24,000 bases of DNA from Zhenhengia yiwuensis (GCF_014384995.1 NZ_JACRSY010000017.1:62401-86400), one strand, 5' to 3'; shown: positions 506 through 19,246, counted from the first letter of the stretch. A program made the numbers and translations. Notes: a model not told the origin generated them from the sequence alone.

Positions 506-889
506 ATGGCATTCGGTGATAGATTAAAATCACTACGATTAGAAAAGGGTATCTCCCAAAGAGAGCTAGGGGATTTAATTGGTATCTCCGATAGGGTTGT
601 GGGATATTATGAAGCAAATGATAGGTTTCCCAAAGATGAGTTAATATTAAAAAAGATTGCTGATTATTTTAATGTTTCAATGGATGATTTATTAGATAGA
701 GATAATAATGTAAAAAAATTACCTTATGAAAAATTTATGGATACAGTAAAAGTACATTTTATGGGGGCTTCACCTGAAGATCAGGCAGCTATTTTTAATG
801 ATATAACAGAAATATATTTTGAGAGTAAGCAAATTAATAAAGAGAAATTTAATCCTTATAAGAATAAAGATAATAAGAATAACCTCTAA
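506..889 (+). CDS. XRE-family HTH transcriptional regulator, ImmR/CI-like repressor candidate, 127 aa
   Basis: N-terminal HTH_3 pattern LKSLRLEKGISQRELGDLIGISDRVVGYYEANDRFPKDE...IADYFNVSMDDLL. Followed on the same strand by an ImmA-like peptidase. Confidence 0.85.
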   Translation: MAFGDRLKSLRLEKGISQRELGDLIGISDRVVGYYEANDRFPKDELILKKIADYFNVSMDDLLDRDNNVKKLPYEKFMDTVKVHFMGASPEDQAAIFNDITEIYFESKQINKEKFNPYKNKDNKNNL

Positions 890-1056: not shown

Positions 1057-1503
1057 ATGAATATAGCATTACGTGTAAAAAATTTAATTAAACGACATGA
1101 GACACGCGACCCATTTAGAATTGCAAAGGATTTAGGGATTATTATCAAATACAGGCCTTATACAGAAACTAAAGGCTATTTTTTGAAAGTAAATACCAAC
1201 AAGTTTATTATAATCAATTCAAACTTAAGTGATTTAGAAAAACTGTTGGTATGCAGCCACGAGCTTGGACATGCTATTTTACATTCCAATAATAAATATG
1301 CTCTAACCTATGAAAAGGGGCTAGCAATGGTTCAGGATTTTACACTATTTCCTGTTAACTCAATTTATGAAAATCAAGCTAATAAATTTGCTGCCGAGCT
1401 TCTTATGGATTCAGAGTTTTTTGACAGTATATTTTCCAAACATACTGACTTAGATCCCAAGATTTATGAAGCTTTAATGAGATTAAGACATACTAGAATT
1501 TAA
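1057..1503 (+). CDS. ImmA/IrrE-family zinc metallopeptidase, 148 aa
   Basis: HExxH motif in CSHELGHAILH and downstream ENQANKFAAELLM, the typical ImmA/IrrE signature. RBS AGGGGGA. Located downstream of an XRE repressor. Confidence 0.8.
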   Translation: MNIALRVKNLIKRHETRDPFRIAKDLGIIIKYRPYTETKGYFLKVNTNKFIIINSNLSDLEKLLVCSHELGHAILHSNNKYALTYEKGLAMVQDFTLFPVNSIYENQANKFAAELLMDSEFFDSIFSKHTDLDPKIYEALMRLRHTRI

Positions 1504-3267: not shown

Positions 3268-3300
3268 ACGTAAATCTCCTTTTTCTATATTCTTTAAGGG

Positions 3301-3366
3301 AAATAACCCAACACAACCACACCGTCTAACTTCATTCTAGTTATCTACGTGGTCATGTCAGGCTTA
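3301..3366 (-). repeat. Cassette-junction hairpin repeat, copy A (most degenerate)
   Basis: AAATAACCCAACACAACCACACCGTCTAACTTCATTCTAGTTATCTACGTGGTCATGTCAGGCTTA aligns nearly base-for-base with 4758-4836 and 6685-6764. Confidence 0.75.
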
Positions 3367-3497
3367 TATCTCTATCCCCTTTAATACTTCTTTCAAGTTA
3401 ATCATTTCACCCTTACTAAGTGTAACACACTTACCCATCTTGGCATGTTCTGGCGCCTATTCATGTATATCGTACTTTAGTTCCTTATCATTCTACG
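3364..3497 (-). pseudogene. Decayed 3' fragment of a PC4/YdbC-like small gene
   Basis: The minus-strand frame reads NDKELKYDIHE*APEHAKMGKCVTLSKGEMINLKEVLKGIEI* with in-frame stops. Roughly 140 nt is homologous to 5048-5185. The KYDIREW..KM.KG..LS pattern recalls bacterial PC4-like (YdbC) proteins. Confidence 0.5.
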
Positions 3498-4757: not shown

Positions 4758-4836
4758 AAAAAAGCCCAACACAAGCATACCTTCTAACTTCATTATAGTT
4801 ATCTACGTAGTCATGTTGGGCTTCTTGTTATAAATT
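4758..4836 (-). repeat. Cassette-junction hairpin repeat, copy B
   Basis: Outer stem AAGCCCAACA (4762-4771) / TGTTGGGCTT (4814-4823), followed by TTTTTT on the minus strand. Homology with copy C continues 9 nt into the upstream CDS (stop plus N-L codons). Confidence 0.8.
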
Positions 4837-6684: not shown

Positions 6685-6764
6685 AAAATAAGCCCAGCAC
6701 AACCACACCTTCAAACTTCATTCTAGTTATCTACGTGGTCATGTTGGGCTTCTTGTTATAAATT
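6685..6764 (-). repeat. Cassette-junction hairpin repeat, copy C
   Basis: Outer stem AAGCCCAGCA (6690-6699) / TGTTGGGCTT (6742-6751), extendable to ~17 bp imperfect (..ACCAC/GTGGT..). The repeat overlaps the last 3 codons of the DUF45 gene. Confidence 0.8.
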
Positions 6765-7469
6765 CATATTAATTCCGTTATTTTTTAACCATTCTTTTCG
6801 CACTTCATAGTCTGGCATAATACTTCCTAGTAAATCCCAGAAGGCTTTTGAATGATCTTTATGATACATGTGGCAGAGCTCATGGACAATGATGTAGTCT
6901 AGTGCATGTGCTTTTGCCATGACACAGCGCCAGTTGAATAAGAGCTCATTGTTAATTGTGCAGCTTCCCCAGCGCTTTTTCTGTTCTTTGATTTTCACTG
7001 TCGTAGGCTTTTTGTCAAAGAAGGCTTGGTAATATTTGAGCCGTTCTTCAATTTGTTCTTTGGTTTTCGCTCTGTACCAATCTTCCATAGTTGCTTTTAT
7101 GAGGAGTTCATCTTTTACTGGTACAGTGACATAGAATTTGCCTCTATAAAGCTTTGTGGATGCTTTTCCTACTGTTTCATCGACTACGATTTGCATGGCA
7201 TAGTTACGCCCTAAGTATACAAAGGCTTCACCATTAACGAATTCTCTAGTAATCTTTTGAGCCTGCATATTTCTAAATGTAAACATCTTTTGTATAAGCC
7301 AACTAGCTTTTTGTTTAACCTTCTGTTTAATGACTTCTTCGGTTGTTCCTATAGGTGCTGTTACTACAATTTTACTTGGTGGCTCTATAGCCATTTCCAT
7401 TGTTTTTCTTTCAGAGTAGGTCACTTCAAAAGTTAAGGCTGTTGTCCCATATTGTAGTGTCAATTCCAT
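6756..7469 (-). CDS. DUF45/YgjP-like (M48/WLM-type) zinc metallohydrolase, 237 aa
   Basis: HExxH in IIVHELCHMYHKDH near the C-terminus. The size and the position just downstream of hsdR are typical of YgjP-like proteins linked to Type I R-M operons. Confidence 0.85.
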   Translation of the reverse strand: MELTLQYGTTALTFEVTYSERKTMEMAIEPPSKIVVTAPIGTTEEVIKQKVKQKASWLIQKMFTFRNMQAQKITREFVNGEAFVYLGRNYAMQIVVDETVGKASTKLYRGKFYVTVPVKDELLIKATMEDWYRAKTKEQIEERLKYYQAFFDKKPTTVKIKEQKKRWGSCTINNELLFNWRCVMAKAHALDYIIVHELCHMYHKDHSKAFWDLLGSIMPDYEVRKEWLKNNGINMNL

Positions 7470-7479
7470 CTTATCGCCT

Positions 7480-10400
7480 CTATTCTAATTCTTTGAAGTG
7501 GGTTTTAGCCAGGTTAAGAAGTGGCTGAATCATCTGGTTAATAATCGGTAACTTCTTGATTGTCTTCATATGATTTTTAATAAGCATCATCTTGATTGCT
7601 CTTTCAATGTCATTTGCTTTTGTAGGATTTGTTACCCAATCAATAAGGTAATGATCTTTAACTACTTGTTTGACATCTTTAGCAATACTCTTTGATAACT
7701 CAATGATATCATTGGAGATATAAACTTCTCCCGAATCCTTAACAACCCCTTCTACACTCTCTTCTTCTAGCAAATACTTTTTCACTACTTCAAAGAATGC
7801 AAACTCTTTTTCATCCAGTCCTAGTGTCTCTGAATGTGACTTTGTACCTTCCATGACTTCTTTTTCAATGAATTCTTCTAACTGTTTCTTACGTTTTACC
7901 CAGTCATGTTCTGTATCATTTAAGAGTTTTTGAAGTTTCTCTAGCAAACTGGTATAAAACACAGGGTTATCATCCATTCTTACTGCAATAGCATGTTTTA
8001 CAGCATGTTCCATAGCTGATGCTTGAGATTCATCTGAATGCATGGTATTAATCTTCATTTTAAAGTCATCTTCAAAGAGAGTAATTGGTGCAATCCACTG
8101 TTGCACACCTAAAGACTTCAGATGTTTTTCAATAATCTCCTTAACCTTTTCTCCACAATCACTAATATCTAAGTTCTGTTCTGGTGTATACTTTGCTTTT
8201 GCAGCCACACGAATATAACTTAGCCATTTCACATCATTGAGAATATCTGCCCCTACATGTGCTGGTAGAAGTGCTTCAACTATACCTTGAAAGGTTTTAT
8301 AACCTATTTCAAACTCAGCTCGCTTATCTTCTGGCTCAATCACTTTGATAAGTTCATCTAAGTTGTTAGGATCTACACCTCTAAACATATTCATGACTGC
8401 TTCACGATAAGAAAGCATTTCTTTGTACAGGTCATCTATAGATTGCATTGGTTTTCCAAGTTCTTCTTTGTCAAAGATGGCTAAAGCTTCTTCCAGATAG
8501 TTGGAAATACCGTAGTAATCTACGACATAGCCACATTGCTTGATGATTTTGTTCTTCTCTATGGTCCCATTTTCTAATTGCTTTTGGATTTCTTGCGTAT
8601 TGGTACGGTTTACCCTTGCTATAGCTTGTAGTAAGTTATGTTCTTTGAGTGGTCTATCTAAATACATGACTTGTTCAATAGGTGCATCGAATCCTGTAAG
8701 TAGCATATCTTTTACAATTAAAAAACATAACTTATCTTTGTCTATTGGCTGTTTGAAATGTTTAATGATTTCTTCTTGTTCAGCCTTTGTGGTAAAGTGT
8801 TCCTTCAAGTGTGGAGGATCATTGTTATCTCCTGAGAAGATGACTCTTACTTCTAGCTCTTCACCAATAATGTCTTTCATATGTTTCTTAAGAGCTCTTT
8901 CATAACGTACACAAGCTTCTCTACTAATACAAACTATTTGAGCCTTAAAGCCATTAGGCATAATGTTATCTCTATAGTGTACTAACATATCTTTAGCAAT
9001 ATCTTCGATGCGGACTTCTGCTTCTGCAATAGCTTTGTTGGTTGCATACTTCTGTTTAATGGCTTCTTTTTCTTCATCTGTTCTATCACTGAACATCTGA
9101 TCAAAGAGTTCATCTAAGCTTTTACCTTCTAGTTGAAGGGCTGGCTTTCTACCTTCATATACAATTTTAACTGTTGCCCCATCTTGTACAGCTTCTTCAA
9201 TACCATATTTATCGATGTAGCCACCAAATGTTCTAGGTGTAGACTTATCTTCTTTATCAATAGGTGTTCCTGTAAAACCTACAAATACTGCATTAGGTAG
9301 TGCGACTCTCATATTGCCTGCTGTATCTTTATATTGGCTACGGTGTGCTTCATCTGTTAGAACAATGACATTCGGTGTAGTCGTTAATACCTCATAAGGT
9401 TTCACAAACTTCTTCTTAACCTTCTTGCCATTTTCAATGACTTCACGTTCTTCTGTCTCACTTTCAAACTTCTGAATAGTCGTCATGATAATTTGAGCTT
9501 TAGCAGCTGATAAAAGCTCTTTCATCTTCACAATTTTATCAGCACGAACTGGCTCTGTTATTTTACAGAGGTTCTTGTAGAAGGTTGCAAAGATTTGTTT
9601 ATCGAGGTCAATACGGTCTGTTACAACCACTATGGTTGAATCCATAAGCCCTTCCATACGTCTAAGCTTTCTTGCTAGGAATACCATTGTCAGTGATTTA
9701 CCACTTCCTTGTGTATGCCATACGACCCCACCACGTCCAATAGAGTTTTTCCCTTTTACCATACGGTCTATTGCCTTATTAACAGCTCTAAACTGCTGGT
9801 AGCGACAGACCTTCTTAATAATACGACCATCATCAGGCTCAAAAAGTAGGAAGTTACGCATCAAGTCAATCAGGTTATGCTTTTCTAGCATGCCTTGAAT
9901 AAAGATATTTTGAGGACTGTTCTCTACATCTTCAATATCTTTCTTTTTGAATGGATAAGGATCTTTCCACTCTACATAGTGATTGTATTGTGAGCTAATA
10001 GTCCCGACATAAGCATGGTATTTATTTAAAATACCTGTAAAGAAGTTGGTATAAAATAGATGTGGTGCACCTTCTCCAAGTGCTTCATCTCGAATATTCA
10101 TATAACGGCAAAGCTGTTCATAACCTTGCTTCTTCCCTACACTGACCTTATTTTGTTTTTCTAAGAAAGGTGATTTACACTCTAAGACTACCACGGGTAT
10201 ACCATTAACAAATACCACAATATCCGGGAAGATACTTTTACCACTCAGTGTCTGAACTTCAAATTGACGCACGACTAGGAAATCATTGTTCAGTGGTTCA
10301 TCCCAGTCAATAAAATGTACTGTATGTTTTTTCTTTAAGCCACTACCATCTAAGTCTTGTTCTACTGTATAAGTAAGGTTCACCATGTCATCATAAAGCT

Positions 10401-10671
10401 TCTCATTAATCTCAAGTAGGCTACTACCCAAATGGTCTGCTGTTTGCAGGTAACGGATTGTTCTCTGTAAATTTCCCTGGCTTATCCAAGGGTTTAAACG
10501 TCGTAAAGCCACTTCTAAATGCTTACTAAGTACCACTTCTCTTAAGGATTCACGTTCCCCTTGTTCAGGTCTTAGCTCTTTACCATGAATATAGGTATAT
10601 CCTAGTATCTCTTTCATATAGTCTACAGCTGGTGCTTCAACTAAGGTTTCTTCATTTCCCAAATAGGACAT
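7480..10671 (-). CDS. hsdR: Type I restriction endonuclease subunit R
   Basis: N-terminal nuclease motif PDIVVFVNGIPVVVLECK, helicase Walker A HTQGSGKSLTM, DEAH box VLTDEAHRSQ, and ~1060 aa length. I prefer the start at 10671 (MSYLGNEE) with RBS GGGGGTGA over the upstream ATG at 10689. Confidence 0.95.
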   Translation of the reverse strand: MSYLGNEETLVEAPAVDYMKEILGYTYIHGKELRPEQGERESLREVVLSKHLEVALRRLNPWISQGNLQRTIRYLQTADHLGSSLLEINEKLYDDMVNLTYTVEQDLDGSGLKKKHTVHFIDWDEPLNNDFLVVRQFEVQTLSGKSIFPDIVVFVNGIPVVVLECKSPFLEKQNKVSVGKKQGYEQLCRYMNIRDEALGEGAPHLFYTNFFTGILNKYHAYVGTISSQYNHYVEWKDPYPFKKKDIEDVENSPQNIFIQGMLEKHNLIDLMRNFLLFEPDDGRIIKKVCRYQQFRAVNKAIDRMVKGKNSIGRGGVVWHTQGSGKSLTMVFLARKLRRMEGLMDSTIVVVTDRIDLDKQIFATFYKNLCKITEPVRADKIVKMKELLSAAKAQIIMTTIQKFESETEEREVIENGKKVKKKFVKPYEVLTTTPNVIVLTDEAHRSQYKDTAGNMRVALPNAVFVGFTGTPIDKEDKSTPRTFGGYIDKYGIEEAVQDGATVKIVYEGRKPALQLEGKSLDELFDQMFSDRTDEEKEAIKQKYATNKAIAEAEVRIEDIAKDMLVHYRDNIMPNGFKAQIVCISREACVRYERALKKHMKDIIGEELEVRVIFSGDNNDPPHLKEHFTTKAEQEEIIKHFKQPIDKDKLCFLIVKDMLLTGFDAPIEQVMYLDRPLKEHNLLQAIARVNRTNTQEIQKQLENGTIEKNKIIKQCGYVVDYYGISNYLEEALAIFDKEELGKPMQSIDDLYKEMLSYREAVMNMFRGVDPNNLDELIKVIEPEDKRAEFEIGYKTFQGIVEALLPAHVGADILNDVKWLSYIRVAAKAKYTPEQNLDISDCGEKVKEIIEKHLKSLGVQQWIAPITLFEDDFKMKINTMHSDESQASAMEHAVKHAIAVRMDDNPVFYTSLLEKLQKLLNDTEHDWVKRKKQLEEFIEKEVMEGTKSHSETLGLDEKEFAFFEVVKKYLLEEESVEGVVKDSGEVYISNDIIELSKSIAKDVKQVVKDHYLIDWVTNPTKANDIERAIKMMLIKNHMKTIKKLPIINQMIQPLLNLAKTHFKELE

Positions 10672-10694
10672 TCTTTCACCCCCATTCAAACTGA

Positions 10695-11936
10695 TTATTT
10701 ATCTGTGGTAACTCTTATCTTTCCTGTTAGAAGTTGTTGCATAAGGCCTTTTTTTAATTCTGTTATTATTTCTTTTTTCTTATAATAACTCTGTAATTTT
10801 TCATCTATCGTATATAAAACATTTACAATTTTTTCTTGTTCTTCTCTAGTTGGTATAAATACTTTAAAGTTTTTAATAATTTCTTGACTAATGTTAGGCT
10901 GTGCTCCCCCAGCGCCTAGCTCAATTAACTTGTCTTTATTAAACTCTAAAGTATAGTACAGATATTCATAATTAACTTTTTCCTCATTACAAATAATACT
11001 ACAACATGCTTGGTTAGTAGTAACTTCTGTTTTATTAATACTTAATTTACCTATTGTTGCACCGTACATAGCTATAATTACTGCATTTACTGGAACTATT
11101 TTTGCAGATGAATTCCTTACGGCCTCTTGTGTTATTTTTTCTTCTGTATCATAAATATATTTATTTGATAGCTCTCCTGTTTTTAGCCATGGAATATTAC
11201 CATTTAAATAATACTCTTTGTTTTTTCTACTAGGTGTTCCCCCACTAGTAGTATTAGCTACTTCTCTAATCAGCTTCACTTCCCACTCTTTAGGAATAAT
11301 ACCTATTTCTGTTTCTTTGAACTCTGTATTCCCTATACCTTTTGTGAGAAGTTGTTGCATCAGACCTTTTTTAAGCTCCTTTGTTTTTTCAATGAGTTGG
11401 TCTACATTGTCAATTTGTTCATCTACAGTTGATAGGATATCAGCTATTTTTTGCTGTTCTTGGAGTGGTGGGTAATATAATGGTAGGTTTTTGAAAACAT
11501 TGTAACTAATTTGCTTCCCATCTCTTATCCCAATAACAGAACTACTTAAACTATCAATAAACTTCTTACTTTTGAATAAATACTTATAATAATTAGAATG
11601 TATATTTATTTTGTTATTCAATATCGTATACGCTGGACTTACTATTCCCCTTATTCCTGAGTACTCTAATCCCCCCTGAAAAGAACGAAGGCTTATAATA
11701 AAGTTACCTTTTTCAACTAATTTATAGCTTTCAATACTTTTATCTGAAGTTTTAATATCTATACCACACTCATCTCTATACATTGTTCCTCTATCTTGAG
11801 TTACTGCAAGTATAGGTTCTTTGGGGTAACCTTTTAATGCCACATTTTCAAACACTTCTCCTGCTTTCTTTATATCCCACTCATTAGGAATAAGTCCTAA
11901 TTCTGTATTTTTGAAGCCATCCTTTACAGTCTTCAT
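10695..11936 (-). CDS. hsdS: Type I R-M specificity subunit S with two target-recognition domains
   Basis: Two TRDs, each followed by a conserved spacer repeat LKKGLMQQLLT (central and C-terminal), plus central PPLQEQQKIADILS. I prefer the start at 11936 (MKTVKDG) with RBS AGGAGGA. The upstream ATG at 11963 lies inside the hsdM 3' end. Confidence 0.9.
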   Translation of the reverse strand: MKTVKDGFKNTELGLIPNEWDIKKAGEVFENVALKGYPKEPILAVTQDRGTMYRDECGIDIKTSDKSIESYKLVEKGNFIISLRSFQGGLEYSGIRGIVSPAYTILNNKINIHSNYYKYLFKSKKFIDSLSSSVIGIRDGKQISYNVFKNLPLYYPPLQEQQKIADILSTVDEQIDNVDQLIEKTKELKKGLMQQLLTKGIGNTEFKETEIGIIPKEWEVKLIREVANTTSGGTPSRKNKEYYLNGNIPWLKTGELSNKYIYDTEEKITQEAVRNSSAKIVPVNAVIIAMYGATIGKLSINKTEVTTNQACCSIICNEEKVNYEYLYYTLEFNKDKLIELGAGGAQPNISQEIIKNFKVFIPTREEQEKIVNVLYTIDEKLQSYYKKKEIITELKKGLMQQLLTGKIRVTTDK

Positions 11937-11949
11937 ACTTATTCCTCCT

Positions 11950-13467
11950 TTATATAATGTCAAATCCTAATTCCTTAAGGTAGCCATTTAGTCTTTGTTG
12001 TGTATTTTTTTCTCTTTCACTAAGTTGCTTAATTTCTTTAATTACATCATTAATATTTACTTGCTCTTCTTCCTCACTTGTATCAACATAACGCGATATA
12101 TTAAGGTTGTACTCGTTATCTTCTAGCTGTGAAATCGATACTACTTTAGAATATTTATCTATATCTTCATATTTTTCAAAGGTGGATATTATCTTAGCTA
12201 TATCTTCTTCTCGTAATACATTTTTAGTTTTCTCTTTACTAAACTCATTGCTAGCATCTATGAATAAGACTTTTTCTTTACGTTCTATAGGTTTATTCTT
12301 ATTCAGTACGATAATAGCTGCTGGAATGCTTGTGCCATAAAAGACATTTTGTGGAATACCAATAATAGCTTCTACTAGGTCATCTTTTAAGAATCCTGTA
12401 CGGATCTTTGCCTCAGCACCACCTCTAAAGAGTACACCATGAGGTACTACTGTAGCCATTTTACCTTTTGCATTTAGGCTTGTTACCATATGAGATACGA
12501 ATGCCAGATCACCATAGCTTTTTGGTGGAATACCATAAGGGAAGCGGTGAAAGGCATCACTTGCAGCTTCTTCAGCTCCCCAGTTTTTAAGTGAGAATGG
12601 TGGGTTTGCTAATACCTTATCAAAAGCTTTTAGTACACCACCTTCTGTATGCATTGGTGTACGGATCGTATCCCCTTTTTGGATATCCGCACCTTTAGCA
12701 CCATGGAATAGCATATTCATCTTACAAATAGCCCAAGTTGATAGGTTAATCTCTTGACCAAATAGTGAAATATTCTTGTGATTGCCACCATGTTTTTTGA
12801 TGTATTCTAAACTTTGAATAAGCATACCACCAGAACCACATGTTGGGTCATAGATACGGTCGCCCTCTACTGGTTTTAAGATACCTACCATTGTTTTAAC
12901 TACTTCTGTTGGTGTATAGAATTCTCCACCTTTAGCTCCGCCATCATCAGCAAACTTTTTGATTAAATATTGGTAAGCATCACCTAACATATCTTCTGAT
13001 TCTAGGTTACTATTTGCTAGTTTCATGCTGCTAAATAGGATTAACATTTGTGATAGCTTTTTATCCGATACACGTTCCTTGTCATTGTAGTTAGTTGTTG
13101 TAAGTACACCAATAAGCTCACTATTTCTAGGCTCGTCCTCTAGTGCTTTAAACGCCTTGTCTAGTGCTGGTCCAATGTTTAGTGATAAATCCTTTAGCTT
13201 AGCCCATCTAGCCGCTTCTGGTACATAGAAGGTCTCATATAAAGAGGCATCATTAAGTAACTCTGTGATCGTTTCATCATCAAGCCCTTGCTCTTTAAAT
13301 TCGGCTTCGTGCTTTGCTTTTTCTTCATCAAATTCATCATTAAGACGCTTTAAGAAAAGCATACCAAAGATATAGTCCTTGTATTGAGCTGCATTAAGCT
13401 CACCTCTTAATATATCTGCACATTCCCATAGCTTTGACTCTAGTTCTTGTAGTGTTAGTAGTACCAT
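11950..13467 (-). CDS. hsdM: Type I R-M N6-adenine DNA methyltransferase subunit M
   Basis: HsdM N-terminal pattern [29 protein letters not shown] motif [11 protein letters not shown], catalytic motif IV NPPF. RBS TTGGAGG. A possible extended -10 (TGATAAAAT) lies at 13512..13504. Confidence 0.95.
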
Positions 13468-14275: not shown

Positions 14276-14650
14276 ATGCGTCAAAGACCTTTACTAAGTG
14301 TGACCATTCTGTATGAGACACCACTAGATCCAAATCTCTGCAAGAAATTACTTGCATATTTTAAGCCTTATGAACACTCTACTCCCATCGAGATTAAGGG
14401 TATTCATTCTGTAAGTAAAATTATACGCATTCCTAGAGCATCATGGAATCCAGCCTTTGATACTGAATTTACTTACCTTATACGAACTCCCAATCAACTC
14501 TATGACATACTTCTTAAGCTGATTGATCTTGCGTTAAAGCTTCTTAATGAAATTGGATATCATGATATAGCTGATACGCTTACGATTCTTGTCCCTTTTG
14601 CTCCAAACGATGACCTCTCCTACACTTTCAAGTGGAAACTTCTCTACTAA
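14276..14650 (+). CDS. Hypothetical protein, 124 aa
   Basis: The only plausible plus-strand ORF here. RBS GAAAGAAGG, followed by a hairpin at 14655-14692. Confidence 0.55.
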   Translation: MRQRPLLSVTILYETPLDPNLCKKLLAYFKPYEHSTPIEIKGIHSVSKIIRIPRASWNPAFDTEFTYLIRTPNQLYDILLKLIDLALKLLNEIGYHDIADTLTILVPFAPNDDLSYTFKWKLLY

Positions 14651-14654
14651 GCAC

Positions 14655-14932
14655 TTAGACTACTTATCACTTTTAAATGGTAAGTAGTCTAAATCTTTGT
14701 CACTCTTTCAAAATCAATTCATTTCAATCCCTAAAACCCTTATGTATCAAGGCTTGATATACATTTACGCAAATATCTGATTTACGCGCTTTTGTGTACC
14801 CCCATAGTCTTTGGGAACATCAAAATATGTTCCCTCACACGTATTAACACACTAAAAAAGGCTAGAGCAAATTGCTCTAAGCATTGGTATTACTTACTTT
14901 TCTTTAACTAGGTATGCAATCGTCTCAACGTG
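14655..14932. repeat. Direct repeat copy 1: diverged duplicate of the rlmD 3' end plus its downstream region
   Basis: Hairpin TTAGACTACTTA/TAAGTAGTCTAA (14655-14692) matches 17414-17447. Block 14763-14932 (TTTACGCAAATATCTGATTT..GTGTACCCCC..GGCTAGAGCAAATTGCTCTA..TTTCTTTAACTAGGTATGCAATCGTCTCAACGTG) aligns with 17746-17917. Confidence 0.8.
14894..14932 (-). pseudogene. Orphan 3' remnant of rlmD (last 12 codons plus stop)
   Basis: The minus strand reads CAC GTT GAG ACG ATT GCA TAC CTA GTT AAA GAA AAG TAA = HVETIAYLVKEK*, against HVETIAYLVKEN* at the end of the intact gene. Homology stops abruptly at 14932/14933. Confidence 0.8.
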
Positions 14933-14977
14933 TAATAGCTAGTCTAAACTACAAGTATATTAATACTTCTTTCTTAT

Positions 14978-15844
14978 TTAATATCTTATTTTAAAATCCA
15001 TTTCTTCTACATTTTCTTTTAACCTATTTATATCATATTCCATAGAATTTATATCTCTTCCAATAGAACTTATTTCTCGTTCAATAGAATCTATGTCATT
15101 TTGAAGTATATAATTATGTTCTTCTTGATCTGATATCTTACCTCTTAGTCTACTGATATCTGATTCTACATAATATATTCTATCTTCGAACTCAGTTTTC
15201 ATTTCATCTATCTGTCTTTCTAAATAATCATAATTATCTTGTATGATTAACAATTCACGTGTAACCCTATCTATCTCATTGCCATCATTATCTACATATA
15301 GTTTTTCTGCTTTATTTCCACACTCTCTACATGTAGGTATTTTCTCACTTTTTAACAGCTCAAAAATATTGTTTTTACAGCTGCATACCTCTTTTAGTGA
15401 AACATAGTCATCACATTTAATATCTCGAATATCACTTCCACACTCTAGGCACTTAACTTTAGGTGTTTTATACGTACTATCTATAACAAAAAATCTACTT
15501 TCGCACTGTTCACATTTTACTGTATTAAGTAAGTGTTCTCTTTCCTCTTCTGTAATTTCATTTCCTTTATCATCTATGGCTATCCATTCTATTTCTTGAT
15601 TGCATTTACCACATTTTATTTTCTTAATAGTTATCTTGTCTAAATTATCAATTTTACTTATTTTAAATGATCCATCTAAACAATTACAATGTTTTTTCAG
15701 ACCTCTATACTCTTTAGGTTTAACCGTGATCTTGACCTCATTACATTTTTGGCAAACAAATTTTATAAATCCTTTTTCTTCTTCTTTTAAAAACTTAACC
15801 TCATGACATACATCACAACTAAAAGTAGTTACCATCTTATTCAT
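14978..15844 (-). CDS. Multi-zinc-ribbon plus coiled-coil protein, 288 aa
   Basis: Four Cys pairs-of-pairs: CxxC-16-CxxC, CxC-22-CxxC, CxxC-17-CxxC, CxC-15-CxxC. This forms an internal two-fold duplication, each half ending in D(D/N)(K/D)GNEI..E.LL. The C-terminal ~90 aa is a heptad-like charged repeat (DISRLRGKISD..DIDSIEREISSIGRDINSMEYDINRLKENVEEM). Confidence 0.8.
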   Translation of the reverse strand: MNKMVTTFSCDVCHEVKFLKEEEKGFIKFVCQKCNEVKITVKPKEYRGLKKHCNCLDGSFKISKIDNLDKITIKKIKCGKCNQEIEWIAIDDKGNEITEEEREHLLNTVKCEQCESRFFVIDSTYKTPKVKCLECGSDIRDIKCDDYVSLKEVCSCKNNIFELLKSEKIPTCRECGNKAEKLYVDNDGNEIDRVTRELLIIQDNYDYLERQIDEMKTEFEDRIYYVESDISRLRGKISDQEEHNYILQNDIDSIEREISSIGRDINSMEYDINRLKENVEEMDFKIRY

Positions 15845-15861
15845 GCACTCCCCCTAATCTT

Positions 15862-16218
15862 TTATTCATACTCTATTTTTTTTACATATAAATAAGGCAC
15901 TTCTTTTAATCCATAATAGCGATCTTCCTCCTCTTGTGAAAAATGATATCTACATTTCATTACCTCATACACTTTGCAACTTGCTGTTTCTTTAATTAAA
16001 TGCTCATTATTTGTTTGTTTTAAGAAGTCAACAAACTCCGGTGTAGTCTGATGTAAATACTTAATTTCAGCAGTGTATCCCTCTGAAGCATATACCTCTA
16101 GCTCCATCTCATGTAATCCATTAATGATTTCATTTCTTAACGTGTTAATTTGTCTCTTTACTACTACTTCTTCACATTTAAGTCTGTAATATTCCTCTAA
16201 GGTTTTGACATCGAACAT
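15862..16218 (-). CDS. Hypothetical protein, 118 aa
   Basis: RBS AGGAGAG. The stop lies 17 nt before the start of the zinc-ribbon gene, suggesting co-transcription. No motif recognised. Confidence 0.7.
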   Translation of the reverse strand: MFDVKTLEEYYRLKCEEVVVKRQINTLRNEIINGLHEMELEVYASEGYTAEIKYLHQTTPEFVDFLKQTNNEHLIKETASCKVYEVMKCRYHFSQEEEDRYYGLKEVPYLYVKKIEYE

Positions 16219-16306
16219 ATTATTCTCTCCTACAATGGATTATCAATCCATTTATATGAATTGTTGGCCTGTCATTATTACAACTTTTATATTAACCCTC
16301 TAATAG

Positions 16307-17290
16307 TTATTCATGCCTTCTTTCTGCATCCTTTGCACTATAATGAGTATCTTTTCTTTTTTTCTCTCCATTCACTACTTCAATATTACTCCTGCGTTTC
16401 ATCTCTTCTTGCACCTGTTCAAATACCTCAATAGGAATGATAGGTTCATGTGCCTCTTCCATAATAAATTGGTCTTGCTGCCCACGGTTGACTTTTTGTC
16501 TATTATTTGGAAACCCTGTAGTATATGTTTTACCTACCCGTACATTACCCATGTATTTTTCGTTCGTAAGCATGGTTTGAATGGTGCGTTTAGACCATCT
16601 CTCTTTGCCTGTAGGCGAATTGATATTCTTATCAGCTAACTCTTCCATAATCATATCTACACTATACCCACTTAGGTATAACTCAAAGATTTGCCTTACT
16701 ACAATCGCTTGCTCTTCATAAATCATTAGCTCTCCATCTTGGTTTTTTTTATATCCAAAGCATTTGCGTGTATAAAGCTTTGATCTTCCAGATTTAAATC
16801 CACTTTTAAATCCCCATTTGATCGCTTCACTTAATCCCTCACTTTCTGCTTGTGCGAATGCAGCGTGCACTGACATTATGAGCTCTGTTTCAGCATCACT
16901 TGTACTAATATTTTCCTGCTCAAAGCGTACCTCAACACCTAACCATTTTAGTTTAGTAACTGTCTCTAGTAAATCAACAGTATTTCTGCTAAATCGACTA
17001 ATTGACTTGACCAAAATGATATCAAATAGATTCTCATAACTATCAAGCATCATCTTATGAAATCCTGGACGAAAAGTATTCCTTCCGGTATCTTGATCCT
17101 CATAGACTCCATACAAAGTCCACTGAGAGTTGCATTTAACGACTTGCTCCAGACCATACTTCTGGGCTTTTAAACTTTCTTCTTGTATATCGCTTAGTGT
17201 ACTTACACGGCAGTAGATTGCCACTCTTTTATCATTTCTTACTGTGGGTGGCCTAACCTCTACATTACGTCTTCTATTGTTTTCCATCAT
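16307..17290 (-). CDS. Serine recombinase (resolvase catalytic domain plus recombinase domain), 327 aa, lacking the zinc-ribbon/coiled-coil domain of large serine recombinases
   Basis: Catalytic-serine motif VAIYCRVSTLSD, SISRFSRN motif, and recombinase-domain patterns (YTRKCFGYKK, SPTGKERWSKRTIQTMLTNEKYMG, HEPIIPIEVFEQVQ). The ORF stops at ..THYSAKDAERRHE*, about where the Zn-ribbon domain normally starts. Confidence 0.9.
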   Translation of the reverse strand: MMENNRRRNVEVRPPTVRNDKRVAIYCRVSTLSDIQEESLKAQKYGLEQVVKCNSQWTLYGVYEDQDTGRNTFRPGFHKMMLDSYENLFDIILVKSISRFSRNTVDLLETVTKLKWLGVEVRFEQENISTSDAETELIMSVHAAFAQAESEGLSEAIKWGFKSGFKSGRSKLYTRKCFGYKKNQDGELMIYEEQAIVVRQIFELYLSGYSVDMIMEELADKNINSPTGKERWSKRTIQTMLTNEKYMGNVRVGKTYTTGFPNNRQKVNRGQQDQFIMEEAHEPIIPIEVFEQVQEEMKRRSNIEVVNGEKKRKDTHYSAKDAERRHE

Positions 17291-17413
17291 AAGACCTCAT
17301 CATTTGTATTTTGACTAACTATCTTTTAAGTATTGCCACTTACCCAATACCTAGTCAAAATTTTCAACATGACGGCTACCTTTACAATTCGGTGAGATAA
17401 GTTAATGTTGCAA

Positions 17414-17917
17414 TTAGGCTACTTAACTAAGTAATAAGTAGTCTAAAACTGCATTTCCGTTTCAACTGCTCTTTTTCCCATTGTATGAATAACATATTTC
17501 ACCTTTTATTTTGTATTCTTAAGTTTATTTATAATTATATTAATGCATAAAAACGGACATCAAACTCGTTCATCACAATGTATCACATCACATACCTGAC
17601 ACCTTTAAAGCCTTTTATTTACAAGCTTTTCCCTAGCTTTCACTTGTGTTACAGTTCTGATATTCCCCCTTCGCTAAGTAGCTTTATAATAGGCTGCCAT
17701 AAGTTCCTTTTATCTCAATTCTAAGTTTTAATACATCTATATAAACTTTTACGCAAATATCCCTGATTTCGTTTATTAGTGTACCCCCCTATCCATGTAG
17801 GAACATATTTTTACCCAATTCCTCCCCAAAAACACATACAAAAAGGCTAGAGCAAATTGCTCTAGCCCTTGGTATTCCTTAGTTTTCTTTAACTAGGTAT
17901 GCGATTGTCTCAACGTG
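17414..17917. repeat. Direct repeat copy 2: rlmD 3' end plus downstream region, contiguous with the intact gene
   Basis: Hairpin TTAGGCTACTTA/TAAGTAGTCTAA (17414-17447) and block 17746-17917 match copy 1. About 300 nt between the two blocks (17448-17745) has no counterpart in the ~70-nt spacer of copy 1. Confidence 0.8.
17845..17867 (-). terminator. Rho-independent terminator of rlmD
   Basis: GGCTAGAGC-AAATT-GCTCTAGCC perfect stem, followed on the minus strand by TTTTTG. A slightly damaged duplicate lies at 14860-14882. Confidence 0.7.
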
Positions 17918-19246
17918 ATGTGTATGAGGGAACATATCTACGCAGCATACTTTCTCTACTTTATAACCAGATTGTTCGAATACTGGAAGGTCTCTTGCAA
18001 GGCTTGTTGGTTTACATGAAATGTAGAGAAGTTCTTTAGCATCAAAACCAATAATTTTATCTATTGCTTTTGGATGAATTCCTTCACGTGGTGGATCAAG
18101 TACGATAAGTTCTGGTTTCACGTGGAAGTTTTCTACTTCCTTAAGAACATCTCCTGCTACAAAGTGGCAGTTTGTAAGATCATTAAGTTTAGCATTTTCT
18201 TTAGCTTTTTCTACTGCTTCTTCTACAATTTCAATACCGTATACTTCTTTTGCTTTGGTTGCCATAATTTGTGCAATGGTACCTGTACCTGAATAAAGGT
18301 CAAATACTACTTTACTTGTGATATCTTGTGGCATATCAAGTGCTGTCTTATAAAGAAGTTCTGCACCTTTTGTATTAGTTTGAAAGAATGAGTAAGGAGA
18401 AATATTGAATTGAAGTCCTAAAATTGTTTCTGTAAAGGCATCTTTACCATAAAGTACTCTCGTAGAGTCTGGTTTAACAGCATCTGCAAGTGTATCAGAA
18501 TACGTATGAAGGATCCCTGCAATTTTGCCTTTTGTTCCTAAGTCTACAAGGTAGTTAGCAAGCTCTGTAAAGTCAAAGTCTCTTTGTGTCGTTGTAACGA
18601 TATTAATCAGAAGGTCTCCTGTTGTTTCAGAACGTCTTACAATAAGGTAGCGTAAGAAGCCTTCATGGATTTTCTTTTTATAGAATGATAGATTGAAAGA
18701 CTGTGCATAGCGTAATACAAATCTTAAAATCATATTAAAGTCTTCATCTACAATTTTGCAGCCATCTACTGTAATAATATCAAATGTACTATTTTTGCGG
18801 TGCATACCTAGTGTCATTGGGCCGTCTTTGCAGGCATCTCCAAAGGAGAATTCCATTTTGTTACGGTAAGCCCATTCAGATGGACTACCTAAAATCCCCA
18901 TATCTTCATATCCTGTAACACCAGCATTTTGAAGAAGTGTTTGAACTTGTTCATGTTTATGTTCAAGCTGATTTTCATAGCTTAAATGCTGCATAGCACA
19001 GCCACCACATAGACCAAAATATTCACATGAAGGTTTTACAAAATGAGCAGGGTTTTCAAGATGCTCTAGAGCACGTCCCTCCCATGTCCCTTTTCTTTTA
19101 CGTTGTAATCTTACGCGTACTTTCTGACCTGGAAATGTATCAGGTACTATAACAGGAATACGCTCTTCTTCTATATACATAATTCCTTTGTTAGGAAATT
19201 TTACTTTTTCAATTAGACCGTCGATAATTTCATTCTTTTTAGCCAT
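17879..19246 (-). CDS. rlmD: 23S rRNA (uracil-C5)-methyltransferase, RumA/RlmD (TrmA) family, 455 aa
   Basis: N-terminal TRAM-like region, Fe-S cysteines CEYFGLCGGCAMQH, SAM motif DLYSGTGTI, DPPREG, and catalytic-Cys motif YISCKP. Confidence 0.9.
   Translation of the reverse strand: MAKKNEIIDGLIEKVKFPNKGIMYIEEERIPVIVPDTFPGQKVRVRLQRKRKGTWEGRALEHLENPAHFVKPSCEYFGLCGGCAMQHLSYENQLEHKHEQVQTLLQNAGVTGYEDMGILGSPSEWAYRNKMEFSFGDACKDGPMTLGMHRKNSTFDIITVDGCKIVDEDFNMILRFVLRYAQSFNLSFYKKKIHEGFLRYLIVRRSETTGDLLINIVTTTQRDFDFTELANYLVDLGTKGKIAGILHTYSDTLADAVKPDSTRVLYGKDAFTETILGLQFNISPYSFFQTNTKGAELLYKTALDMPQDITSKVVFDLYSGTGTIAQIMATKAKEVYGIEIVEEAVEKAKENAKLNDLTNCHFVAGDVLKEVENFHVKPELIVLDPPREGIHPKAIDKIIGFDAKELLYISCKPTSLARDLPVFEQSGYKVEKVCCVDMFPHTHHVETIAYLVKEN

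Follow-up and report, generated by a model that had tools for sequence, protein, structure and literature searches.

Does a protein with zinc ribbons and a coiled coil, encoded directly behind a serine recombinase that lacks both, act as the missing part of that enzyme, or is it a passenger on the same element? This question is raised by a 24,000-nt stretch of the Zhenhengia yiwuensis genome (GCF_014384995.1, NZ_JACRSY010000017.1:62401-86400; hereafter, the window), in which the gene for a 327-aa recombinase is followed, on the minus strand, by genes for proteins of 118 aa (p118) and 288 aa (p288). Large serine recombinases (LSRs) use the zinc-ribbon domain (ZD), with its coiled coil, to bind the outer half-site and to control the synapsis and direction of recombination (PMC3783163). 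An earlier note on this DNA proposed that p288 supplies this function in trans, with an independent cargo of a small mobile module as the alternative. The alternative fits the evidence better: p288 has no similarity to the ZD, it has relatives with no recombinase nearby, and sister recombinases carry other cargo. We therefore favor, with moderate confidence, the view that p118 and p288 form a passenger operon, the independent cargo of a small mobile cassette.

The two-gene unit was recovered as the earlier note had described it, with the p118 and p288 genes on the minus strand, 17 nt apart, and Shine-Dalgarno-like purine runs 5′ of each open reading frame (ORF). The p288 protein contains 17 cysteines, 16 of which are paired as eight CxxC/CxC pairs in two blocks (residues 10/13, 31/34, 53/55 and 78/81, and residues 111/114, 132/135, 154/156 and 172/175). 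The internal tandem duplication proposed for this protein was borne out: the two halves align with each other (BLASTP, E=1e-5, the alignment taking in the D-x-x-GNEI...RE-x-LL segment), and each is matched separately by the family profile described below. The proposed C-terminal coiled coil was likewise found, since the last 96 residues display a 3.5-residue hydrophobic periodicity equalled by none of 5000 shuffles, and residues 193-287 are a single confident helix in AlphaFold. The 16 paired cysteines are all kept in a homologue with 56% identity, and the coiled coils of homologues differ in length by whole heptads (+7 residues in L017, −14 in P0002). The dN/dS ratios were 0.20-0.30 for p288, 0.07-0.25 for p118 (at informative divergence) and 0.14-0.22 for the recombinase, indicating purifying selection on all three genes. 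The low ratios, together with the conserved cysteines, the heptad-sized indels and the confident helix, show that selection maintains p118 and p288 as genuine genes.

A word-indexed search of 5.8 billion clusters returned p288 itself and a single relative with 56% identity. An exhaustive HMMER search of 1.84 billion representatives, with a profile built on the N-terminal 205 residues of p288, yielded 34 proteins at E<=1e-3, among them proteins that match one half of p288 by itself. Most of these proteins are 165-200 aa long and consist of a single eight-cysteine unit, a linker with a conserved Y-x-D-x-x-GNEID-x-x-TRELLII-x-D sequence, and a coiled coil. In the family alignment (28 sequences), seven cysteine columns are invariant and the eighth is nearly so. 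Duplication of the unit took place on at least two occasions: P0013 has halves with 48% mutual identity, and the duplication in the lineage of the window is older than the split between P0001 and P0002. Judging from these sequences, p288 belongs to a rare, unnamed clostridial zinc-ribbon/coiled-coil family. The earlier note knew of no described family with this repeat architecture, and none is described in Pfam, NCBIfam, PHROGs, PADLOC or the PDB, but a family does exist, with 34 representatives. There is no model for it in Pfam, NCBIfam, PHROGs or PADLOC, which gave generic zinc-ribbon or coiled-coil matches at sub-threshold level only. No p288 homologues were found in GTDB genomes or IMG/VR with an alignment of the p288 pair. 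A scan of GTDB with a degenerate GNEID..REL motif gave 54 loci, one of which (in C. magnum) is a true member of the family; the same scan of IMG/VR detected no true member, and a search of IMG/VR with P0014, a distant two-unit member, gave nothing.

The second unit of p288, modeled by AlphaFold with the 28-sequence alignment (mean pLDDT 95, pTM 0.79), is an all-beta module, the closing helix of which runs on into the coiled coil. The full-length model, built from two sequences only, had a pLDDT of 55 and was kept out of the fold search. Foldseek with the unit 2 model returned nothing at E<=1e-3 from the PDB or BFVD, and there was no LSR chain among the top 50 PDB matches, although the PDB holds SprA LSR entries (9dxh). 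A local match of 32 columns to Brf (8iue_V, rmsd 1.5) was obtained, Pfam Zn_Ribbon_TF matched six of the 28 family members below threshold, and a PDB sequence search with the unit profile gave nothing significant (Rpb9 at E=0.011). The individual ribbons of the family, of about 30 aa, thus resemble TFIIB/Rpb9/TFIIS-type zinc ribbons locally, but there is no global match, and those proteins contain nothing equivalent to the two-ribbon unit, the GNEID-TRELLII linker or the coiled coil.

The comparison with the LSR ZD, proposed in the earlier note as a check on its reading, was negative. Zn_ribbon_recom (PF13408) did not match p288 at E<=1, nor any of the 28 family members at E<=0.01. In hhalign, the family profiles matched a 14-sequence LSR ZD profile with probabilities of 2-19% over 14-25 columns, whereas the two halves of the ZD set matched each other at 99.8%; the probability against a single LSR C-terminus was 0.3%. 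The general likeness to the ZD and coiled coil of LSRs such as the LI integrase and SprA consists of cysteine-nucleated beta ribbons and a long coiled coil, within or beside an enzyme with Resolvase and Recombinase domains. Unlike the ZD, which has one zinc site, p288 has four, in two duplicated units; it is also a separate polypeptide, and it has relatives with no recombinases. Its coiled coil is C-terminal, following the second unit rather than being inserted in a ribbon, whereas that of LSRs is embedded in the ZD, between its helices (PMC3783163). There is no detectable relationship between p288 and the LSR ZD at the level of sequence, profile or fold.

The description of the recombinase as lacking exactly the zinc-ribbon and coiled-coil module proved accurate. 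Its only Pfam domains are Resolvase (PF00239, E=6e-30) and Recombinase (PF07508, E=2e-27), and its alignments with SprA (69-297 of 545), CcrB (5-290 of 542) and phrog_95 (74-364 of 651) place its end at the boundary between the recombinase domain (RD) and the ZD. The protein stops about 30 residues past the RD, and its tail (…KRKDTHYS…) is the counterpart of the linker and first strand that full-length relatives have ahead of their first cysteines. Relatives with 61-93% identity (325-353 aa) stop at the same place, and this shared length identifies a conserved short clade rather than a one-off pseudogene. The best NCBIfam matches were CcrB and CcrC, both far below the cut-off. A metagenome scan with the recombinase gave 61 loci, none with a p118 or p288-family neighbor; nearly all of these loci encode full-length LSRs (445-573 aa, <=44% identity), so short recombinases were not probed by this comparison. 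One candidate short recombinase (L097) was discarded, as it is an LSR disrupted by an insertion sequence and frameshifted. Many human-gut contigs (L100-L127) contain a conserved trio of adjoining recombinase genes (547, 326 and 573 aa), the middle one of which matches from the RD onward only and lacks the catalytic N-terminal domain.

The recombinase, p118 and p288 genes lie in a cassette that extends beyond the module boundary given in the earlier note (14933-17413), as defined by the repeat spacing and the border core (Table 1). In gene orientation, it comprises the left-end repeat R1, a palindrome, the three genes and a right-end half-palindrome. The last ~13 codons of the methyltransferase gene fall inside R1. 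An 87-nt core of R1 is 89% identical to 14846-14932 in R2, and the two repeats are ~76% identical over 176-182 nt. Terminator-like hairpins flank the three genes, and the terminator scan found no such site between them. A 12-nt motif, TTAGACTAnnTA, forms inverted pairs (built of TTAGACTACTTA) that head each cassette, between the left repeat and the genes, and occurs as a single copy at each right end. Pairs like Pal1, with 9-26-nt spacers, are found 5′ of a short recombinase gene or heading a neighboring cassette in L001, L011, L012 and L018. The cassette borders of L008, L009-L013 and L017 share a conserved junction core, A(C/T)GTTGAGA. The same half-palindrome and A(C/T)GTTGA core close the cassette of L008, which has 69% nucleotide identity and a different methyltransferase ending, the cassette of L017 and a different cassette in L011. 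Moreover, four different left neighbors adjoin one ATGTTGAGAG core in L009, L010, L012 and L013.

Table 1. Features of the recombinase-p118-p288 cassette and its target gene, with positions in the window
Feature	Position	Strand	Basis
p288, 288-aa protein: two eight-Cys units and coiled coil	14978..15844	-	ORF call, BLASTP, family HMM, AlphaFold
p288 unit 1, residues 3-107: CxxC..CxxC..CxC..CxxC and DDKGNEITEEEREHLL	15524..15838	-	family-HMM envelope; half-versus-half BLASTP
p288 unit 2, residues 104-206: CxxC..CxxC..CxC..CxxC and DNDGNEIDRVTRELLII	15227..15535	-	family-HMM envelope; AlphaFold model
p288 coiled coil, residues 193-288, ~12 heptads without a break	14981..15268	-	periodicity test; AlphaFold
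p118, 118-aa orphan protein	15862..16218	-	five homologue clusters, 64-90% identity
327-aa serine recombinase: catalytic N-terminal domain and RD, no ZD or coiled coil	16307..17290	-	Pfam, alignments
Whole cassette, 2,985 bp	14933..17917	-	direct repeats spaced 2985 nt; conserved junction core
Target gene: 455-aa rumA/rlmCD (TrmA-type) RNA m5U methyltransferase	17879..19246	-	Pfam tRNA_U5-meth_tr, E=6e-22
R1, left-end repeat: methyltransferase 3′ end, terminator hairpin 17842-17870, ~100 nt	17741..17917	-	repeat and terminator scan
R2, displaced methyltransferase 3′ end (...IAYLVKEK*) and terminator 14862-14880	14757..14932	-	repeat and terminator scan
Pal1: TTAGGCTACTTA-N9-TAAGTAGTCTAA, 124 nt 5′ of recombinase start	17414..17446	.	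repeat search, motif comparison
Right-end half-palindrome, minus strand TTTAGACTAGCTATTAC, adjoining crossover core ACGTTGAGAC	14932..14948	.	same arrangement in L008, L011, L017
Pal3, Pal motif with N14 spacer; also terminator-like for 124-aa ORF; starts next, recombinase-less segment	14655..14692	.	

The cassette is thus a site-specific integrative unit, with its own recombinase, one att core at the 3′ end of a conserved gene, flanking repeats, tandem arrays, and presence or absence according to strain. Pal1 was considered as a simple attP and rejected, because its spacers vary (9-26 nt) and the GTTGAGA core is where the borders move. Contig L005 (2,501 nt) was rejected as an excised circle, since its ends do not overlap and the right one is fused to a different methyltransferase 3′ remnant. 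In this one sample, the cassette has no right-end half-palindrome: the sequence passes into this remnant (...VESVKKTL*) 13 nt past the p288 stop codon (2473-2501). The contig begins exactly in the Pal1 spacer. We propose that the short recombinase would insert the cassette into the last codons of the rumA/rlmCD-type methyltransferase gene, that the cassette would bring a substitute gene end and terminator, and that successive cassettes would stack in tandem. The junction of an excised circle would read TTTAGACTAGCTATTAC|ACGTTGAGACAATCGC, followed by R1-specific variants. Serine-recombinase elements have been documented to target rumA in Firmicutes (PMC5704250), and tandem arrays including decayed members are well known (PMC4701971).

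Comparisons between strains revealed the gain or loss of whole cassettes. The flanks of the window and of L001 are 98.6-98.8% identical, and the difference between them is one whole neighboring cassette, containing a 129-aa gene and the gene for a 353-aa short recombinase; the same cassette is found in L094. Similarly, L010 and L011 share 9.2 kb at 99.9% identity and differ by one 2.6-kb cassette, which encodes a 325-aa recombinase and a 366-aa DUF6933/PRiA4_ORF3 protein. These sister short recombinases (61% identity) have the same length and use the same target site, with the 366-aa or the 129-aa protein as cargo, and no zinc-ribbon/coiled-coil protein was found in their cassettes at the same att core. 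The same methyltransferase gene precedes the arrays in L001, L002 and L011. The arrays, which are rich in defense genes (restriction-modification, AlwI, AIPR and Mrr), have grown by tandem accretion, with every newcomer entering a rumA-type gene at one att core and bringing a substitute gene end. A 124-aa ORF in the window (14276-14650, plus strand) is homologous (25% identity, E=5e-9) to the 129-aa gene, which is paired divergently with the 353-aa recombinase gene in L001 and L094. The recombinase partner is absent from the window, and this ORF may be the stump of another cassette.

The order recombinase-p118-p288 is kept wherever the contig is long enough (L001-L005, L008, L017 and L018, and as remnants in L009-L014), and the trio is conserved at 56-95% identity; L019 contains p118 and a split p288 homologue only. 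The p118 gene sits between a short recombinase gene, or its remnant, and a p288-like gene wherever the contig includes both flanks. No match to p118 was obtained in Pfam, NCBIfam, PHROGs, PADLOC or, in a profile search, the PDB, and no relatives were detected outside this cassette lineage. In a decayed copy of the cassette (L009-L016; for example, L011 5785-6834), the recombinase is reduced to fragments of 81 and 54 aa and the p288 homologue to 49 aa. The p118 homologue of this copy (121 aa, 81% identity, dN/dS 0.18) is intact and was recorded in 45 contig-index blocks (31 contigs according to the cluster table).

The more distant family members have other neighbors. None of the four single-unit relatives for which the surroundings could be read (C. 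swellfunianum, P0028; C. magnum, L056; and two JGI metagenome contigs, P0043 and P0047) has a recombinase within ~7 kb. All four stand alone among housekeeping genes, with neighbors including nitroreductase, NlpC/P60, ArgRS, HisRS, NudC and a penicillin-binding protein. The expectation that homologues would accompany short recombinases was therefore upheld for the close homologues, which always follow one, but not for these single-unit relatives. Two further two-unit members lie in other settings: P0010 is near a tyrosine integrase, and P0014 comes after prophage holin and amidase genes and has two recombinase ORFs at a distance of 0.5-1.3 kb, one of which is a fragment with neither end. The other (L030 8922-10296) is 64% identical to a 551-aa LSR and has lost residues ~337-409, its zinc ribbon; its coiled-coil and C-terminal part continues in an overlapping 152-aa ORF, 1.3 kb 3′ of P0014. 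From their sequences, the zinc-ribbon-less state of these recombinases looks like decay rather than design.

How the pair relates to the recombinase can be judged from these observations. A trans-acting partnership, in which p288, perhaps with p118, would bind near the crossover, for example at TTAGACTAnnTA, as part of a functional split LSR or as a directionality or synapsis factor, is unlikely. Of the possibilities, it holds the greatest interest, since it would account for the way in which an LSR derivative with no ZD finds its sites; the p288 coiled coil would bridge subunits as the ZD-embedded coiled coil does in LSRs, by analogy and not homology. Recombination directionality factors bind the coiled coil or ZD of LSRs and switch the direction of recombination, and they have, to our knowledge, no conserved sequence signature. 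A partnership would suit the termination of the recombinase exactly at the RD/ZD boundary, the gene order, which is invariant over 56-95% identity with no internal terminator, and the state of the decayed copy, where fragmentation has affected both recombinase and p288 homologue. The inverted motif pair 5′ of the recombinase gene and the right-end copy, at variable spacing, would suit a flexible bridging binder, and an LSR that is missing its zinc ribbon is encoded 1.2 kb from P0014. However, p288 has neither homology nor fold similarity to the ZD, its coiled coil is differently placed (PMC3783163), all four readable single-unit relatives are away from any recombinase, the recombinases linked to P0014 resemble pseudogene debris, and the 61%-identical short recombinases use the same att core with no such protein. 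Furthermore, contigs sharing a dead p288 copy (99.9% identity) differ by one neighboring cassette; this is suggestive only, as the reaction could have been carried out by other recombinases in the array or with an intact p288 encoded at another place in the genome. The broader claim, that an active LSR-derived clade with no ZD relies in this cassette on a non-homologous separate protein, recruited from a host protein family as an accessory module for site recognition, synapsis or directionality, and is thus a naturally split integrase, is rather improbable. The split is nevertheless weakened rather than eliminated, because close homologues of p288 always follow a short recombinase. It is more doubtful still that p288, p118 or both are regulators or maintenance factors internal to the cassette, binding the palindromes to control recombinase expression or to stabilize an excised 3-kb circle, with no role in synapsis. 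Every cassette type has a palindrome separating the R1 terminator from the recombinase start, nucleic-acid binding is common among zinc ribbons, and the ribbons have a weak TFIIB/Rpb9-type similarity, but cassettes with other cargo retain the motif and have no p288, neither protein has a helix-turn-helix or other known operator-binding domain, and no such palindromes were seen near the chromosomal relatives, though no systematic search was made. Finally, the two ORFs might be non-functional, left over from the decay of an LSR 3′ region, or might have arisen by chance, given that the recombinase appears truncated and AT-rich DNA contains many ORFs. This is extremely improbable and already contradicted by the dN/dS values (0.07-0.30), the retention of all 16 paired cysteines at 56% identity, the heptad-sized indels, the family of 34 clusters, the confident fold prediction and the lack of similarity to LSR C-terminal regions.

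The reading of the pair as independent cargo has its own difficulties. No specific function for p288 or p118 is positively supported; the PADLOC-DB v2 matches of p288 are weak (LmuB, 5e-5; PDC-M46B, 3e-4; PDC-S64, 5e-4), the first two involving mostly the coiled coil, and no p288 homologue was found in the phage (tblastn), plasmid (blastn) or IMG/VR collections. In the cassette lineage, the pair has always been seen together with the short recombinase or what remains of it, and even the distant P0014 adjoins zinc-ribbon-less, if decayed-looking, LSR genes. The presence of a zinc-ribbon and coiled-coil protein beside a recombinase that has lost such a module is, on this reading, a striking coincidence. 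These points weigh against passenger status; we nevertheless consider that p288 probably comes from a rare clostridial family, as a member with a duplicated unit that is carried by a mobile element, and is not a detached piece of a recombinase. The family plan is two zinc sites in an all-beta unit of ~100 aa, a Y-x-D-x-x-GNEID-x-x-TRELLII linker and a long heptad coiled coil. We infer that the coiled coil may form a parallel dimer or trimer, on which 4-6 or more zinc-ribbon units would be displayed to a target, either nucleic acid or protein, and that the pair may serve the cassette or its host, for example as defense or competition cargo, rather than strand exchange.

Cassettes of this kind have counterparts in known systems. 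Staphylococcal cassette chromosomes (SCC) are moved by ccr serine recombinases and insert at the 3′ end of rlmH/orfX. Both they and the cassettes described here are serine-recombinase cassettes at the 3′ end of an rRNA methyltransferase gene, with target-end repeats that part tandem arrays and with restriction-modification or defense cargo. However, the Ccr proteins are full-length LSRs of 440-560 aa, whereas the window recombinase ends after the RD, the target here is of the rumA/rlmCD type, and the window cassette is only 3 kb long. We know of no equivalents of p118 or p288 in SCC. The integrative and conjugative or mobilizable elements (ICEs and IMEs) of streptococci that target rumA, with their tandem accretion of IMEs and cis-mobilizable elements, resemble the system in the kind of target, the serine recombinase and the arrays with decayed elements (PMC5704250, PMC4701971). 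Streptococcal IMEs insert within rumA, disrupting it, and have very short flanking repeats (PMC5704250), whereas the window cassette brings a ~180-nt substitute 3′ end that restores the gene, and has no mobilization genes.

The remainder of the window has further features of variable regions. A type I restriction-modification operon (6756-13467, minus strand) lies directly 3′ of the cassette and consists of hsdM (11950-13467), hsdS (10695-11963), hsdR (7480-10689) and a gene for a YgjP-like metallopeptidase (6756-7469, minus strand); in the near-identical strain L001, a different type I system occupies this position. A 79-nt repeat with inverted ends (AGCCCAACA...TGTTGGGCT) is present in three copies, 76-91% identical (3300-3378, 4758-4836 and 6686-6764), each in the gap just 5′ (minus strand) of an unannotated gene (214, 422 and 487 aa). 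It has no Rfam match, and Rfam and tRNA scans of the window were empty. At the far end of the variable region, an HTH_3 repressor-like gene (506-889, plus strand) is followed by a gene for an IrrE/ImmA-type M78 peptidase (1057-1503, plus strand), a pair of regulators typical of mobile elements. Close relatives of a DUF434 protein encoded nearby bear names that point to a Zhenhengia-like host within the Clostridia.

The compact LSR-derived recombinase (325-353 aa) lacks a domain thought to be essential for att recognition and directionality, and its cassettes vary between near-identical strains. If the short recombinase is active alone, the minimal requirements of serine integrases would have to be revised, and a much smaller enzyme would become available for genome engineering. 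The 3-kb cassette, with its repair of the target gene and stacking in arrays, provides a tidy model of the assembly of defense islands. Through p288, a zinc-ribbon/coiled-coil family that had no annotation is defined, with a fold that is predicted confidently and has no structural neighbor. If the pair is only cargo, the gain is a modest one for the catalogue of known small integrative elements.

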